Origin: a virus | Taxonomy: Duplodnaviria > Heunggongvirae > Uroviricota > Caudoviricetes | IMG/VR virus record: IMGVR_UViG_2619619126_000011 | DNA length: 16,729 nucleotides | Strand: one strand, 5' to 3' | In this document: one piece after another, positions 1 through 15,198 of the stretch | Numbering within the stretch: position 1 is the first letter of the stretch | How the letters are laid out: the number at the start of each line of letters is the position of its first letter | The notes under the pieces: generated by a model | Told to the model about the DNA's origin: nothing | The model's input: the letters and a program-made list of their open reading frames with translations, nothing else | Database searches by the model: none | Translations under genes and position numbers: made by a program

Positions 1-163
1 CTAACTTAAGGGTTGAACCATCTGAAGAATGCGACGCCTCGGTGCCTCGTTAAGACGATGCCTCGCGTTCTTCAATTGCGTTTTGTAGGCTGTCAGGGAT
101 ACTGTCCCACGAATGGCCACCTGTAAGCTCCAGATGACCATTTTTGTTATTCTCCACAACGAG

Positions 164-1276
164 TTAGTTCTTCTTTTCGGATCCGGCACTTCTGGGGGGG
201 AAATCCAGCGATGGCTGGATTATGTCGTCAATTAAAAATGCGGCGAGTAGATTAGCAAATATCCACGCTTTCGCGAGTTCAGGTTCCTTTGCACGCAAAG
301 CATCCAGGTGCAGCAAACTTTTGAGCCGCTTAAAAGCCAGTTCAATTTGCCATCGCAGACGGTAACAATCAGCCACTTGCTCTGCTGAATATTCATCTTC
401 CGGTAATGATGTTAGCAATAGCACATGGCCCGCTGCTTCCAGCGTTTCCGCCTGAACTACTCGTCCTTTTCGACGATTCTCGCTGAGCAGTCGGGTTTTA
501 CTGATTAATGCTTTTTCGGGAGGAAGTGATACGGCAATGAGACGTGCCGGAAAGGGAGCTCCGGCTTTTTTATTACCTGAATTGCCTATCATTACAGTGG
601 TTTCACCGTTCTTACCGCAATCCAGCCCGCGCAGAAAACCCATCATGTCAAAGCGCATTCCTTCTGCAGTTAACCAGCGCAATCCTCGCCAGTGAACCCG
701 GACGATATAATCAGCTTCTCCAAAAGCAAGTGAGCGGATACATTCGGGACGCGAACCGAATCCCCGGTCAGCAATGCGTATCTCGTCTGCCGTTTGCGCA
801 AATCGGTCCAGCCGTTCAGCGTCTCTGCTGTCGGTTAGCTCAAAATCAGTGAACTGACAGGTATGAGGATCATATCCCATATGTAGTCGCCATTCAGCGC
901 TGCCGCCCCCGGGCGCACTGATTGCTGTTCCATCGACAAGACGCAATCTCTTTCCGCTTGTACAACCCGTAACTGCGGCGCGTACAGCAAGTGTTTGTGC
1001 GGCAAGTATGCCAAACCAGTCGGCGGCATTCCGCAGCCGCTTCAGGAGAGCCACGTCAGATAATGTTGCAACGTCATGGAGCTGAGCCCATGCAGTGACT
1101 TCACGTAATGACATCCCCCCGGGGCCGTAAGCCAGCCCCAGACGTAGCAGAGTTGCAGCATCACGAATTTCGCGGCGGCGGGTTAGAGCCCCGGCATTAC
1201 GTGCCGAAGTATCCAGTTCTTCGGGCTTACCAATATGGGCCAGAATTGCTGACCAGTTATCGTGAGAGTAATTCAT
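164..1276 (-). CDS. insL: IS186 transposase InsL (IS4-family DDE transposase), 370 aa
   Basis: ORF starting at ATG 1276 (MNYSHDNWSAILAHIGKPEELDTSARNAGAL...), matching the InsL N-terminus as I recall it. C-terminal YRLRWQIELAFKRLKS fits the IS4-family Y-R-E-K signature. The ORF-track start at GTG 1282 is two codons upstream. Confidence 0.9.
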   Translation of the reverse strand: MNYSHDNWSAILAHIGKPEELDTSARNAGALTRRREIRDAATLLRLGLAYGPGGMSLREVTAWAQLHDVATLSDVALLKRLRNAADWFGILAAQTLAVRAAVTGCTSGKRLRLVDGTAISAPGGGSAEWRLHMGYDPHTCQFTDFELTDSRDAERLDRFAQTADEIRIADRGFGSRPECIRSLAFGEADYIVRVHWRGLRWLTAEGMRFDMMGFLRGLDCGKNGETTVMIGNSGNKKAGAPFPARLIAVSLPPEKALISKTRLLSENRRKGRVVQAETLEAAGHVLLLTSLPEDEYSAEQVADCYRLRWQIELAFKRLKSLLHLDALRAKEPELAKAWIFANLLAAFLIDDIIQPSLDFPPRSAGSEKKN

Positions 1277-1308
1277 CGGCACGTTAAATCATATCAGGCG
1301 TAATACCA

Positions 1309-1331
1309 CAACCCTTAAGTTAGCGCTTATG
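1309..1331. repeat. IS186 right terminal inverted repeat
   Basis: 1309-1323 is a perfect reverse complement of window positions 1-15; extension to 1331 is inferred because the partner bases lie outside the window. Confidence 0.65.
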
Positions 1332-1353
1332 GGATTTCTCCCCGCCGGTCCTC

Positions 1354-1509
1354 TTACTCCCCAAGTTCGTAAGCTGTGAAGACAGCGACCTCCGTCTGGT
1401 CGGTTCGGATTCGTACCTCGCAGAGGTCTTTCCTCGTTACCAGTACCGTCACTATAACGGTTAAACAGATGACGATCAGGGCGACTAACATCGCCTTTTG
1501 CTGCTTCAT
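1354..1509 (-). CDS. Hok/Gef-family type I toxin (small membrane-depolarising peptide), 51 aa
   Basis: MKQQKAMLVALIVICLTVIVTVLVTRKDLCEVRIRTDQTEVAVFTAYELGE: one TM helix followed by the conserved RKDLCEV and TEVAVFTAYE motifs of HokC/HokD (RelF) as I recall them. ATG at 1509 is preceded by an AGGAGAAG RBS. Confidence 0.85.
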   Translation of the reverse strand: MKQQKAMLVALIVICLTVIVTVLVTRKDLCEVRIRTDQTEVAVFTAYELGE

Positions 1510-1566
1510 AGCCTGCTTCTCCTTGCCTTTCGGCACGTAAGAGGCTAACCTACATGTGCAAAGCAT
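1354..1566 (-). CDS. mok-like reading frame (in-frame upstream extension of hok, needed for hok translation in hok/sok systems)
   Basis: 70-codon frame MLCTCRLASYVPKGKEKQAMKQQ... with the same layout I recall for K-12 MokC, where Hok is the C-terminal 50 residues. The frame begins with a non-ATG start at 1566. Confidence 0.45.
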   Translation of the reverse strand: MLCTCRLASYVPKGKEKQAMKQQKAMLVALIVICLTVIVTVLVTRKDLCEVRIRTDQTEVAVFTAYELGE

Positions 1567-1768
1567 GAAATTGGCCTCAGATTAATGTTAAGCGTCTTGC
1601 CGGATGCGTAATGTTAACTGGGGCTTTTCTCTATCTGCCTTTGATGTTCATGCCCGAGGCAGATAGCCTCAAGTATCCGCAGCTATTTGTCTGCTGTTAC
1701 CACCTACCTGCGCCAATCACTGACTCTACAAAGATCTATCCGCGATAACATTTTGAGTTTAAGAACTT

Positions 1769-1797
1769 TTGCGTACGCACCAAAAGATGCATATACT
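1769..1797 (+). promoter_or_regulatory. Putative sigma70 promoter for the two-gene operon (TTGCGT -35, 17-bp spacer, TATACT -10)
   Basis: TTGCGT at 1769-1774 and TATACT at 1792-1797, about 40 bp upstream of the GGAG RBS and ATG at 1839. Sequence pattern only. Confidence 0.3.
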
Positions 1798-1838
1798 AGA
1801 CTAGTCATAGTTCTAATCTGCTTGATTATGGAGTCAGG

Positions 1839-2897
1839 ATGAGTTTCCTTTCTGAACAAGACGTACAAAATTTAGTCATTAATAAAATGATCTTTCACGT
1901 TGTAGGTAAGAATCTTGAAGCACCGACACTTCTCAAAGAAATAAAACCAGTTCAGCATGTGGATTTTTTTCTTGAACGTATCAAATCTTCACTGAAAGGA
2001 AATCTTTTCACTTTTCTGGAGAATTCAAATACCGAAAGAATCCTGCGTATCATTAGAGATAAAGCAGATGCTGAAGCTAATTGTTTTACAGAACAATCGA
2101 AGCTACTGGCCAGTGATTTTCAGTCACACCATTCTAGCGGTAACACGAGTATGGGATGCTTTTTCTTATTTGAATTGGTTTCAGATAAGGAAAAATTCTA
2201 TGCAATTATAAAATACGATAATGAAGATGTGGTTCGTTATGTTCTTGACGAAAAGTTATCTGAAGAACAAATGCCTACTTTAGAAAGATTTCATGAAACT
2301 TTCGTAAAAAAAGCTGAGGCAATGCAAAAAATAGCGTTAATTCAACTTGATCCAAGTGGGAAAGGCGGGAAAGTTATTGTAAAAGACAGGAGTAAAAGAA
2401 CCAATATTTCAGGATATTTTAAAGGCTTCTTAAATGTTAAAAGAGTCAACTCTGAAATTGAACTTTGCAATAAGCTTATTGATGCGCTGAAAATAACCTT
2501 CAAAAGGCATAAAGAATTATTGCCAGAGTCAATTCAAAAAAGCGGCGTAAATAAAATATATGAAGTTTTAAGCAGAGCTGATTTCGAATATAATCCTGAA
2601 GATGCTTCTCCGTTATTGACCAGCATTTTTGGGCCGTTAGATGAAAAATCACCAATTCTCAACACATTCAAAACTCAAACAAAAAATGCTGGTATTGAAG
2701 GCGAATCCTTTACTATAAAAGCAGATGGCATTCATAAACCACCAAGACGAAAAATTGAAACTGCAGAAAGTGTAGTAATTAGTTATAATGAAGATGACCG
2801 TCCAGAAATAAGAAACTTAGATGATGGGCGAAAACAAATTATTGTTACTACTGCGAGGATTATTACTGATGACATCGATACTTCAAAAAATCGATGA
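1839..2897 (+). CDS. Hypothetical protein, 352 aa, soluble; gene A of the low-GC two-gene operon, with a tentative by-eye resemblance to the NdpA/YejK (NA37) nucleoid-associated protein family
   Basis: ATG at 1839 preceded by GGAG (1830-1833). The long ORF is about 30% G+C, sampled by hand on 60-nt lines. No catalytic motif recognised. The NdpA resemblance rests on short patterns such as G-F-LF and Y-FKG and is not a search result. Confidence 0.8.
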   Translation: MSFLSEQDVQNLVINKMIFHVVGKNLEAPTLLKEIKPVQHVDFFLERIKSSLKGNLFTFLENSNTERILRIIRDKADAEANCFTEQSKLLASDFQSHHSSGNTSMGCFFLFELVSDKEKFYAIIKYDNEDVVRYVLDEKLSEEQMPTLERFHETFVKKAEAMQKIALIQLDPSGKGGKVIVKDRSKRTNISGYFKGFLNVKRVNSEIELCNKLIDALKITFKRHKELLPESIQKSGVNKIYEVLSRADFEYNPEDASPLLTSIFGPLDEKSPILNTFKTQTKNAGIEGESFTIKADGIHKPPRRKIETAESVVISYNEDDRPEIRNLDDGRKQIIVTTARIITDDIDTSKNR

Positions 2898-4302
2898 GTC
2901 TATACAGGCGTCAAGGAAAGACCCTGAATTTTTGGCATCAGAATCAATAAAAAATGATTCTGCGCGCGTTCTAATTTCTGCCAAAATGGACAAAGATGCA
3001 CTCATTCTTTGGCAGTACGTTTACGAAAACGTACCAAATTGGATTGAAATTACTGTTAAAGATGACTGTAATGATGAAGTAAAACCATCGTCATGCAGTG
3101 AAGGTGATAAACTTAACATTACGCTAAAATGCATTGCATTCGAAAATAACAGGTATATTTTTACGCTCGAAGGGTGGAATGTTTTTCTACACAATGATGA
3201 TTTAGTATCAATAACCAATAAAGTGAATATTCTCGGTTTGAAACATGGATTTGAAACTTTAGGATATTCTGTTGAGCCATGGAACCATGCTCCAGAAAAA
3301 ATTGAATCTAATGAAACCGTACGAACTTCAATCAATTTACAGAGCTACGTTAAATTCTATTCTAGTGAGTTCATGCCTGCATCTGATATAGCTCCTTGGG
3401 TACTTTATAAAATGCCTGAGGCAGAGGACAACTTTTTCAAAAAATGGTTACAAGTTTCCTGCAATATGCTTTGTCGCACTCTCGTTAATGAATTATTAGC
3501 AGATGAAAAGAAATCAATTTGTTTAACTGGAAAGCCACCAAAAAAATTAATTTATGGAGATCCAGACATTCTGCTTTCCGACTATTCAGTTTTACAAACT
3601 GTAATAAACTGGATCTTTATTGAGGGCAATGAGATTGAACTCAAACATACTTTCTTCACAAGTGAGTTAGCACGAGAATGGCCAGAGTATGTATCCTTCT
3701 GTGAGGGTTTACCAAAAAAACTCCCTATGGCCTTTGAGTCAGCAAAATTACTATATAAGGCCCACATTCGCGCTAGCAGCAGAGAGACTATTAAATCTCT
3801 GTCCGATCTAAGGAAAACCTTAGCTGAAGACACGCAAAAAATAATAAGTCAGTCTAAAGACATCACATCCGCTCTTTGGAAAGATCTGGCTCTGGTTATA
3901 AGTCTATTTGCAATAAAATATGCGCTAGACGCATCAAAGATTAATATAACCAATAACATATTCCCATATATGTTCTTCGCGTTATCTATATATATTTTTA
4001 TATCTCAGGTTACAACTCTCTTCATAAATAAAAATTACTTTAAGATACTTGATAATACTAGGCTAGTCTGGAGAGATAAACTATATGGTTTTCTTGATGA
4101 TACTGACTATGAGAATCTTGCAGTCACACCATTAAGAGAAGCATACAAAGCTTATCAGATTATAGCCACATTCGTTGTGATTCTGACTTTGCTGATTTCA
4201 TTTATAATGATCATATTAGGATTCTCAATGCTTGATGAACATGCTACGAATGCAATTACCTCTTGGCTCAGTTCTCACTTAATCAATAGTTACTGTAGTT
4301 AA
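2869..4302 (+). CDS. Hypothetical protein, ~477 aa, with a soluble N-terminal region and 2-3 C-terminal transmembrane helices; gene B of the operon
   Basis: Start ATG 2869 is chosen for the GAGGA 9 nt upstream; it overlaps the gene A stop by 29 nt. The alternative start is ATGATG at 2821. Hydrophobic stretches LALVISLFAIKYAL, IFPYMFFALSIYIFISQVTTLFI and YQIIATFVVILTLLISFIMIILGFSML lie near the C-terminus. AT-rich like gene A. Confidence 0.8.
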   Translation: MTSILQKIDESIQASRKDPEFLASESIKNDSARVLISAKMDKDALILWQYVYENVPNWIEITVKDDCNDEVKPSSCSEGDKLNITLKCIAFENNRYIFTLEGWNVFLHNDDLVSITNKVNILGLKHGFETLGYSVEPWNHAPEKIESNETVRTSINLQSYVKFYSSEFMPASDIAPWVLYKMPEAEDNFFKKWLQVSCNMLCRTLVNELLADEKKSICLTGKPPKKLIYGDPDILLSDYSVLQTVINWIFIEGNEIELKHTFFTSELAREWPEYVSFCEGLPKKLPMAFESAKLLYKAHIRASSRETIKSLSDLRKTLAEDTQKIISQSKDITSALWKDLALVISLFAIKYALDASKINITNNIFPYMFFALSIYIFISQVTTLFINKNYFKILDNTRLVWRDKLYGFLDDTDYENLAVTPLREAYKAYQIIATFVVILTLLISFIMIILGFSMLDEHATNAITSWLSSHLINSYCS

Positions 4303-4332: not shown

Positions 4333-4851
4333 TCAACGGTAATAGATACAACCTGCAATAAATCCCATTGCCATTTGCATTTTTTTCCTTATTTTACCAT
4401 CTGAACATTCGTTTATCTTAGCTAAACAACGCAATGAAACTCCCATAACAAAATGAGCGATAATTAACTCATAGTCATCTATCCTATATTGTTTAAGCCT
4501 CAACATGCAGGTATCAATTATACCCCCTTCATCATTGCTGCACTGACGACGTGATTTTTTACCATGAGGAACAACATTTTTATATTTATCAGCTATTTCC
4601 TGCCAATCAATAGAACTATTTTCAGCTACAGCCCAGGCTCCCCAACCGTCCAAAATATCATATATATTAGCATTGCTATCTACCTGTTTTTTATATTCTT
4701 TTTTGAATCGCGCAAGAAGCATCCTAGCCATCGTTATTATTTCTATACTTGTAACTGATTCATAAGCATCAGGAGAAATAATTCTCCCATCACTTAATGC
4801 CCCATCACTAAGATTTGCTATTTCCAATAATCGTTCTTTAGTTATTTCCAT
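4333..4851 (-). CDS. Phage late antitermination protein Q family (QuuD-like), 172 aa, with an N-terminal extension
   Basis: WGAWA...RRQCSNDEGGIID...YELIIAHFVMGVSLRCLAK..CSDGKIRKKMQMAMGFI aligns by eye to E. coli QuuD as I recall it (WGAWA, RPQC and CSDG.IGKRLQ motifs). ATG 4851 has a GGAG RBS. Unlike the flanking prophage genes it is about 33% G+C. Confidence 0.65.
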   Translation of the reverse strand: MEITKERLLEIANLSDGALSDGRIISPDAYESVTSIEIITMARMLLARFKKEYKKQVDSNANIYDILDGWGAWAVAENSSIDWQEIADKYKNVVPHGKKSRRQCSNDEGGIIDTCMLRLKQYRIDDYELIIAHFVMGVSLRCLAKINECSDGKIRKKMQMAMGFIAGCIYYR

Positions 4852-5011
4852 TATTATCTCCACCGCCTTTTCGGGCGGCCTCCTGATGATTTGAGAGTGC
4901 AGGAATTCCTCCGGTTAAGGACTCTATTTTATTCACAGTGCTGAATTTAATTATTCAGATTTGGGTTATGCTTTCTCTTTCACTTCACCAAGTTCCGATT
5001 ATTAATTTGGC

Positions 5012-14801: not shown

Positions 14802-14996
14802 ATGAGATATGACAATGTTAAACCATGTCCATTTTGTGGTTGTCCATCAGTAACGGTGAAAGCCATTTCAGGATATTACCGAGCGAAGTGTAACGGATGC
14901 GAATCCCGAACCGGTTATGGTGGAAGTGAAAAAGAAGCACTCGAAAGATGGAATAAACGAACCACTGGAAATAATAATGGAGGTGTTCATGTATAA
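14802..14996 (+). CDS. ralR: Restriction alleviation protein Lar/RalR, 64 aa
   Basis: MRYDNVKPCPFCGCPSVTVKAISGYYRAKCNGCESRTGYGGSEKEALERWNKR, with CxxC...CxxC. Position is downstream of recT as in Rac. Confidence 0.85.
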   Translation: MRYDNVKPCPFCGCPSVTVKAISGYYRAKCNGCESRTGYGGSEKEALERWNKRTTGNNNGGVHV

Positions 14997-15198
14997 AATT
15001 ACCGCCACTATTGAAAAGGAAGGTGGCACTCCTACTAACTGGACAAGATATTCAAAATCTAAACTAACGAAATCAGAATGCGAAAAAATGCTCTCAGGTA
15101 AAAAAGAAGCAGGCGTTTCCAGAGAGCAGAAAGTAAAACTGATAAATTTTAATTGCGAGAAACTTCAGTCCTCGAGAATTGCATTGTATTCAAATTAA
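14989..15198 (+). CDS. ydaC: YdaC (RcbA), 69 aa
   Basis: ATG 14989 with a GGAGGT RBS (MYKITATIEKEGGTPTNWTRYSKSKLTKSECEKMLSGKKEAG...). It overlaps the ralR 3' end. Confidence 0.8.
   Translation: MYKITATIEKEGGTPTNWTRYSKSKLTKSECEKMLSGKKEAGVSREQKVKLINFNCEKLQSSRIALYSN

Follow-up and report, generated by a model that had tools for sequence, protein, structure and literature searches.

The subject of this analysis is a 16,729-nt stretch of a Caudoviricetes genome (IMG/VR record IMGVR_UViG_2619619126_000011; hereafter the window, taken at its full length), which opens within a copy of the insertion sequence (IS) IS186 abutting a hok/mok/sok locus with a gene for a Hok-family toxin. Our analysis indicates that IS186 entered its preferred palindromic target in the first hairpin of the hok 3' untranslated region (UTR), leaving the toxin gene itself unharmed and probably uncoupling it from the 3' control element located further downstream; we put the probability of this explanation as a whole at roughly 0.8. 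The anatomy of the insertion, the empty site, the target-site duplication and the recurrence of IS186 at the homologous site of other hok loci are established by sequence comparison, and the regulatory consequences proposed below follow the model developed for the hok/sok system of plasmid R1. The earlier note on this DNA, made from the sequence alone, had interpreted the region in a similar way, namely as an IS186 inserted just downstream of an intact hok gene so as to affect its 3' fold-back element, and this interpretation is supported.

The IS186-hok junction and its empty site

Positions 1-1331 of the window correspond to IS186; they are identical to nt 9-1339 of a 1339-bp copy of the element from strain 2024CK-00188 (locus L003), which in turn shows 0 differences over 1339 bp from both the K-12 IS186A and IS186B copies. 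In 2024CK-00188 these 1339 bp lie between 23-bp terminal inverted repeats (CATAAGCGCTAACTTAAGGGTTG); in the window the first 8 nt of the distal repeat are cut off by the window edge, while the remainder of the element is complete up to the terminal letters ...GCGCTTATG of the proximal repeat at 1331. The single DDE transposase gene of IS186, insL, which is annotated as WP_001300563.1 in both 2024CK-00188 and LH10-b-1 (locus L015), is co-directional with hok, both being encoded on the minus strand. The features that make up the junction are:

1-1331, minus strand: IS186 (IS4 family), by identity to nt 9-1339 of the 2024CK-00188 copy
1-15: distal terminal inverted repeat, last 15 of 23 nt (CTAACTTAAGGGTTG), from the sequence
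164-1276, minus strand: IS186 transposase gene insL, 370 aa, ATG at 1276 (open reading frame (ORF) list; Pfam DDE_Tnp_1, 1.6e-26)
1309-1331: transposase-proximal 23-bp terminal inverted repeat (CAACCCTTAAGTTAGCGCTTATG), from the sequence
1332-1341: target-site duplication of 10 bp (GGATTTCTCC), represented by one of its two copies, the second lying beyond the window start
1332-1353, minus strand: hok 3' UTR remnant of 22 nt, which retains the loop of the first hairpin and its 5' arm (in mRNA sense GAGGACCGGCGGGGAGAAAUCC), from the sequence
1354-1509, minus strand: hok toxin gene, 51 aa, TAA stop at 1354-1356 (Pfam HOK_GEF, 1.1e-21)

The distance between the IS end at 1331 and the hok stop codon is exactly 22 nt (1332-1353), in agreement with the approximate figure of the earlier note, which had also recognized the toxin frame as intact. 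Its description of this terminus as the right end of IS186 holds in window coordinates, but with respect to the element itself this is the transposase-proximal end.

The history of the junction can be read from genomes that carry the same locus with and without the element. The 507 bp to the right of the IS recur in 29 complete-genome records at 99.6-100% identity, and the locus without the IS is found in strains THO-008 (L001) and 13E0767 (L002). Of the records matched by a 120-nt probe across the unoccupied site, 118 cover at least 80% of its length, 14 of them at 100% identity. Between THO-008 and 2024CK-00188 the sequence ...GTTGCGG-GGATTTCTCC-CCGCC... is converted to ...GCGG-GGATTTCTCC-IS186-GGATTTCTCC-CCGCC..., and both copies of the duplication are visible in 2024CK-00188, LH10-b-1 and PCP06101 (L016), the corresponding empty site in THO-008 being GCGGGGATTTCTCCCCGC. 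The 10-bp duplication is the centre of a GGGG-N6-CCCC site, and the empty site GGGGATTTCTCCCC together with the duplication in related genomes conforms to a G/C-rich GGGG-N6/7-CCCC target. Read in mRNA sense, the targeted sequence forms the loop of GCGGGGA-GAAA-UCCCCGC, the first hairpin of the 3' UTR, a structure starting 11 nt past the hok stop. The window itself contains 0 matches to GGGG-N6-CCCC, because the IS splits the site.

The hok-IS186 junction of the window is present at 100% identity in six complete-genome records and at 99.5% in two others, and is therefore no assembly artefact. Further, in LH10-b-1 (NZ_CP100530.1, 462-1800) IS186 occupies the locus in the opposite orientation with an identical 10-bp duplication; the presence of both orientations here therefore implies at least two independent insertions. 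Two further observations concern the variability of the surroundings of this junction. Relative to THO-008 and 2024CK-00188, the annotated start of the gene for an NA37-like protein is shifted away from hok by about 150 nt in LH10-b-1, which suggests a further rearrangement. In PCP06101 (NZ_CM129875.1, 2623-4916) the hok-IS186 junction is kept and the hok N-terminus along with everything upstream is swapped for a cassette encoding Sll1717-family P-loop ATPases, leaving hok as a 3' remnant.

The hok locus and its displaced 3' element

Upstream of the junction the toxin, its leader ORF and the Sok gene all read as intact despite the presence of IS186. The elements of the locus beyond the hok gene itself, whose product is annotated in related genomes as Hok/Gef WP_197731663.1, are:

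1354-1566, minus strand: mok-type leader ORF, 70 aa, in frame with hok (ORF list; K-12 mokC and hokC likewise share a stop codon)
1504-1678, minus strand: hok mRNA 5' leader, which includes the upstream complementary box as well as the Sok target (Rfam RF01794 at 99.4 bits over model positions 1-157; ten related loci aligned)
1523-1551, plus strand: Sok promoter, TTGCCT-17 nt-TAACCT, read from the sequence and conserved in locus L007 and K-12
1558-1634, plus strand: predicted antisense RNA Sok, whose terminator comprises a long hairpin and a U tract (alignment to annotated K-12 sokC)
1667-1678, minus strand: 5'-terminal element (tac) GGAUACUUGAGG, which reads GGGUGCUUGAGG in 9/9 relatives examined (alignment)
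1685-1716, minus strand: non-canonical remnant of a hok promoter, TTGGCG (1716-1711), 20-nt spacer, ACAAAT (1690-1685) (comparison with relatives)

The predicted fold of the Sok terminator has an energy of -30.7 kcal/mol (z = -4.2). From the ten-locus alignment, the start of hok transcription is inferred at about 1678, a site that lies 7 nt past the -10 hexamer and coincides with position 1 of the Rfam model. An alternative start, located 6 nt upstream of this one, would allow a perfect GCUGCG:CGCAGC pairing; it was considered and is unlikely, since the aligned -10 and the Rfam model both point to about 1678. Across alignment columns 100-135 versus 300-400 the related hok loci are mosaic: the leader of the window locus matches L007 and the 3' half of its coding region plus the 3' UTR match L018 and L019, while the hok leader of L018 matches L008. 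This pattern points to recombination among prophage hok loci.

The IS-free alleles reveal what lies on the far side of the insertion. In the mRNA of the intact allele the stop codon occupies nt 323-325 and the IS insertion point falls after nt 347. A fold-back segment, CCUCAACGCAGCC, complementary to the mRNA 5' end, spans nt 373-385, i.e. 48-60 nt past the stop, and is directly followed by a terminator-like hairpin and T tract (5956-5940 in the THO-008 locus). Both the fold-back element and the terminator are thus located beyond the insertion point, and in 2024CK-00188 they are found just past the far IS end, outside the window; by this comparison both are displaced by about 1.35 kb and not deleted. 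Alignment to the THO-008 and 13E0767 alleles leaves hok with only 22 nt of 3' UTR, and the fold-back element is not among them. The separation of hok from this element foreseen by the earlier note is hence borne out, and the contrary outcome that it had named, a complete hok 3' UTR retained upstream of the IS end, is not what the alignment returns.

Structure prediction is in line with this picture. The first 3'-UTR hairpin has a predicted energy of -21.8 kcal/mol (z = -5.4) in the intact allele as against -8.8 kcal/mol (z = -0.5) in the IS allele. In L007 the 5' nt 1-12 are predicted to pair with nt 377-389 with a probability of about 1.0, with L018 and L019 behaving similarly, and in the intact allele of the window locus nt 7-11 are predicted to pair with nt 374-378 with probabilities of 0.6-0.87, and nt 1-2 with a probability of 0.53. 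For the IS allele no stable 3' partner of the 5' end is predicted, the partner shifting with each assumed 3' end and always having a low probability. Tabulated pair by pair, the helix between the 5' element and the fold-back segment (the tac/fbi helix) is complete (12/12) in seven relatives, whereas L018 and L019 form 11/12 pairs and the window locus 10/12. Complementarity, position, predicted pairing probability and the precedent of R1 together argue for this helix.

According to the R1 model, full-length mRNA is kept closed by the tac/fbi stem, and in this state it can be neither translated nor bound by Sok until slow 3' processing releases it. Our explanation of the window locus is as follows. 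IS186 transposed into its preferred GGGG-N6-CCCC palindrome, which in hokC/hokD/hokE-type loci is the stem-loop right after the stop codon; 10 bp were duplicated, while hok, the in-frame leader ORF and the gene for the Sok antitoxin remained intact. The first 3'-UTR hairpin was thereby split, and the fold-back element and the terminator were moved to the far side of the IS. By analogy with R1, the hok transcript of the IS allele would be unable to adopt the closed, inert and stable full-length fold and would also be without the hairpin that caps the processed form; it would be open to Sok binding and decay once made, such that no reservoir of latent toxin mRNA could build up. Delayed (post-segregational) activation would thus be lost, with the cell still protected by Sok. 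As hok and insL are co-directional, any hok transcript would read into the IS, and no terminator-like site between the two genes is predicted in the interval 1200-1900 of the window; that hok transcription continues into the transposase gene is speculative. In the reverse direction, a promoter pointing outward from the IS end into hok antisense was sought in the same interval, with no convincing hexamers by eye and none in a consensus scan.

Recurrence of IS186 at hok genes and competing explanations

We re-derived the target consensus of IS186, reportedly described by SaiSree et al. 2001, from five sites, namely this locus in both orientations, K-12 hokC, K-12 hokE and the nupC terminator, and found that 5/5 consist of GGGG-N6-CCCC with 10-bp duplications. 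In hok sense the junctions read TAA + 22 nt + IS186 for K-12 hokC, TAG + 21 nt for hokE and TAA + 22 nt for the window, and in all three the element is lodged in a GGGG-N6-CCCC hairpin, at its loop. IS186C, the remaining copy in K-12 (NC_000913.3, 2514273-2515617), is inserted with the duplication GGATAATTCC in a GGGG-N6-CCCC hairpin after nupC; this hairpin is bordered by A and T runs and looks like the nupC terminator. Plasmid hok loci, e.g. that of pANT_2, carry IS186 at the same position in both orientations. The statement of the earlier note that K-12 hok loci are similarly flanked by IS elements is accurate for hokC and hokE and concurs with the literature, in which hokA, hokC and hokE of K-12 are thought to be inactivated by nearby insertion elements, IS186 is described as disrupting the fold-back element of hokC/gef while transcription and antisense control persist, and a hotspot survey of insertions had flagged hok/sok genes. 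A placement of all three K-12 elements 22 bp downstream of hok was rejected because it fails for hokA, whose IS150 is found in mokA, on its 5' side.

In a survey of 5,426 complete E. coli genomes, IS186 ends were found in 8,490 places, with 954 junction records in the window orientation, 858 in the opposite orientation and 1,734 at hokE. At least 3,546 of the approximately 8,490 IS186 copies (at least 42%) abut a hok gene, though these counts do not represent independent events, given that common descent accounts for many of the junctions and that the totals are inflated by laboratory K-12 strains. The hokE junction is present in 1,732 of the 5,426 genomes, the window junction being rare by contrast. 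Eight combinations of locus and orientation are represented, including hokC in both, hokE, the Rac-prophage hok in both, plasmid hok in both and other prophage hok loci. In L007 and L008 the post-stop hairpin has GAGGG...CCCTC in place of GGGG...CCCC, with the stem kept by paired changes and the IS186 consensus lost. We regard it as improbable that IS186 is effectively a specialist of the hok 3' hairpin over and above target preference and harmless retention; if it were, the hok hairpin could be a safe landing pad for IS186 on the plasmids and prophages that carry it between cells or, alternatively, the GAGGG...CCCTC hairpins of L007 and L008 could be alleles that escape IS186.

Several points weigh against the proposed uncoupling or reduce its import. 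The arrangement TTGGCG-20 nt-ACAAAT is found in 29 records with this 5' region, as opposed to TTGGCG-17-TAGAAT in the closest alleles and a -10 of TACAAT/TATAAT in other relatives, and a consensus scan finds no promoter in window positions 1200-1900 while finding one in L007, although such a scan cannot measure activity. The mRNA 5' end of this lineage is GGAUAC instead of GGGUGC, with two substitutions within the first 6 nt, and the predicted 5'-3' duplex is -9.3 kcal/mol without the IS versus -17.4 to -21.5 kcal/mol in relatives; fold-back control may have been already compromised before the IS arrived. Compensatory covariation for the tac/fbi helix was looked for in the related loci and none was found, only G-C to G-U changes and mismatches being seen, because the helix is nearly invariant in the subfamily. 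A summary of Pedersen and Gerdes 1999 reports that chromosomal hok loci, even when intact, do not mediate post-segregational killing, and there may perhaps have been no such function to lose. In principle, a full read-through transcript could also still pair with the fold-back element beyond the IS. Because the hok promoter and 5' element already look impaired, we consider the consequence of the insertion in this lineage to be probably small.

Much of this evidence can be turned into a distinct account, in which the insertion was functionally neutral, hok being already silent or decaying in this lineage and IS186 merely kept at a harmless hotspot. Such neutrality is favored by the aberrant promoter, the failure of the scan to recover a promoter-like site, the duplex weakened by the two 5' substitutions, the reported inactivity of intact chromosomal loci and the loss of the hok N-terminus in the PCP06101 variant. 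It sits less well with the intactness of the hok and mok frames and of the Sok promoter and terminator, and the consensus scan cannot prove a promoter dead. Nor can the residues A22V, G37D, P48L and E49G that set the window Hok apart from seven relatives (pairwise dN/dS, the ratio of nonsynonymous to synonymous change, of about 1-1.6) be taken as decay, since L018 and L019 share them alongside a canonical promoter and 5' element. We hold neutrality to be a possible but somewhat doubtful account; it is compatible with the structural part of the target-driven insertion favored here and differs from it only on the consequence.

A selective explanation, whereby the recurrence of IS186 next to hok reflects selection to disarm the toxin system and not target preference, could appeal to the share of IS186 ends that abut hok (the at least 42% above) when GGGG-N6-CCCC should also occur elsewhere in the genome. 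Yet every site examined, the non-hok nupC terminator included, shares one palindrome and a duplication of 10 bp, insertions of either orientation fall on the very same nucleotide, as target choice predicts, and the toxin ORF itself is never targeted. The hairpin of the window allele is moreover unoccupied in the 118 records recovered by the probe, the counts are inflated by junctions shared through descent, and retention bias alone would enrich such sites, insertions in the 3' UTR being harmless. Adaptive disarming is therefore unlikely in our assessment. More improbable still is that the insertion rewires expression, either with the hok promoter driving or modulating insL or with a read-through RNA pairing with the displaced fold-back element in a long-range control of hok. 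It is true that hok and insL share a strand with no terminator-like site predicted between them (window 1200-1900), and that the fold-back element and terminator persist just past the far IS end in 2024CK-00188; but the hok promoter of the window looks weak, transcription of K-12 gef/hokC reportedly terminates within IS186, about 200 bp past the stop (with the IS in the opposite orientation there), and the occurrence of the opposite orientation at the same site shows that orientation is unconstrained. By analogy with the co-transcriptional folding of R1, about 1.3 kb of extra transcription would also let the 5' end refold before its distal partner was made.

Prophage context and comparison with known systems

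The locus is situated in a Rac-type lambdoid prophage, which complete genomes place beside trkG. In addition to the following gene, the window carries RecE, RecT, a RalR/RalA pair and an integrase at the window end:

4336-4863: Q antiterminator (window)

The RalR/RalA pair is a type I toxin-antitoxin system at 14917-15198 (+) and 14995-15173 (-), with the RalA RNA scoring 225 bits in Rfam and the RalR ORF matching DUF1187. Between the Q antiterminator and hok lies a low-GC two-gene cassette (1839-4302, +; 33-36% GC versus about 50% nearby), which codes for a 352-aa NA37-family nucleoid-associated-like protein (Pfam, 1.2e-12) with a 77-nt overlap with a 493-aa ORF. The latter has no Pfam match and a PADLOC scan of both cassette ORFs gave no matches; the cassette occupies a moron position and could have an accessory or defensive role. 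At its left edge the window cuts 8 nt off the IS186 inverted repeat, and its last position, 16729, falls exactly on the integrase stop codon, which is consistent with positions 1 and 16729 being a contig or provirus boundary and not a biological end.

The arrangement as such has been described for K-12 hokC and hokE; here it concerns a prophage hok paralogue and is polymorphic among strains. This prophage-borne gene joins hokC and hokE as toxin genes uncoupled from their 3' control by IS186, and the constant spacing of 21-22 nt is explained by the hok hairpin itself being the consensus target of the element. An intact hok ORF beside IS186 does not, for the purposes of annotation, qualify as a complete toxin-antitoxin module. 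The hok hairpin accounts for a large share of IS186 copies and could be used as a natural reporter of IS186 activity, and matched strains with and without the IS (e.g. 2024CK-00188 and THO-008) are suited to a test of the role of the fold-back element in chromosomal hok.

Among known systems, K-12 hokC (gef)/sokC is similar in having IS186A 22 nt past the stop, in the loop of a GGCGGGGA-N4-TCCCCGCC hairpin and with a 10-bp duplication, its toxin and leader frames and antisense RNA gene likewise being intact. It differs in that the IS has the opposite orientation, hokC and insL1 being convergent, in its chromosomal location adjoining nhaA and not in a prophage, in having only about 75% DNA identity to the window locus, and in possessing a canonical TATAAT -10 and a GGGUGC 5' end. 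K-12 hokE/sokE carries IS186B in a GGGG-N6-CCCC hairpin, 21 nt past the stop and again with 10 bp duplicated; the element is oriented as in the window, such that hok reads into the transposase-proximal IS end, but this divergent paralogue of hok occupies a fixed chromosomal position close to entD.

The hok/sok (parB) system of plasmid R1 displays the complete plan, i.e. a leader with the Sok target (RF01794), a leader ORF, a Hok of about 50 aa, a post-stop hairpin, a 3' element complementary to the 5' end and a terminator, and the IS-free allele of the window locus fits this plan. Unlike the window locus, whose 3' part is severed by the IS, R1 hok/sok is intact and mediates post-segregational killing; further differences are that the leader ORF of the window is in frame with hok and that its promoter and 5' element depart from the family consensus. 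Finally, a precedent for the behavior of the element is offered by IS186 at lon, where repeated insertion in both orientations at one short G/C-rich palindromic site involves a matching type of target; there the insertion destroys a promoter with a clear selectable phenotype, whereas at the hok locus it falls in the 3' UTR.

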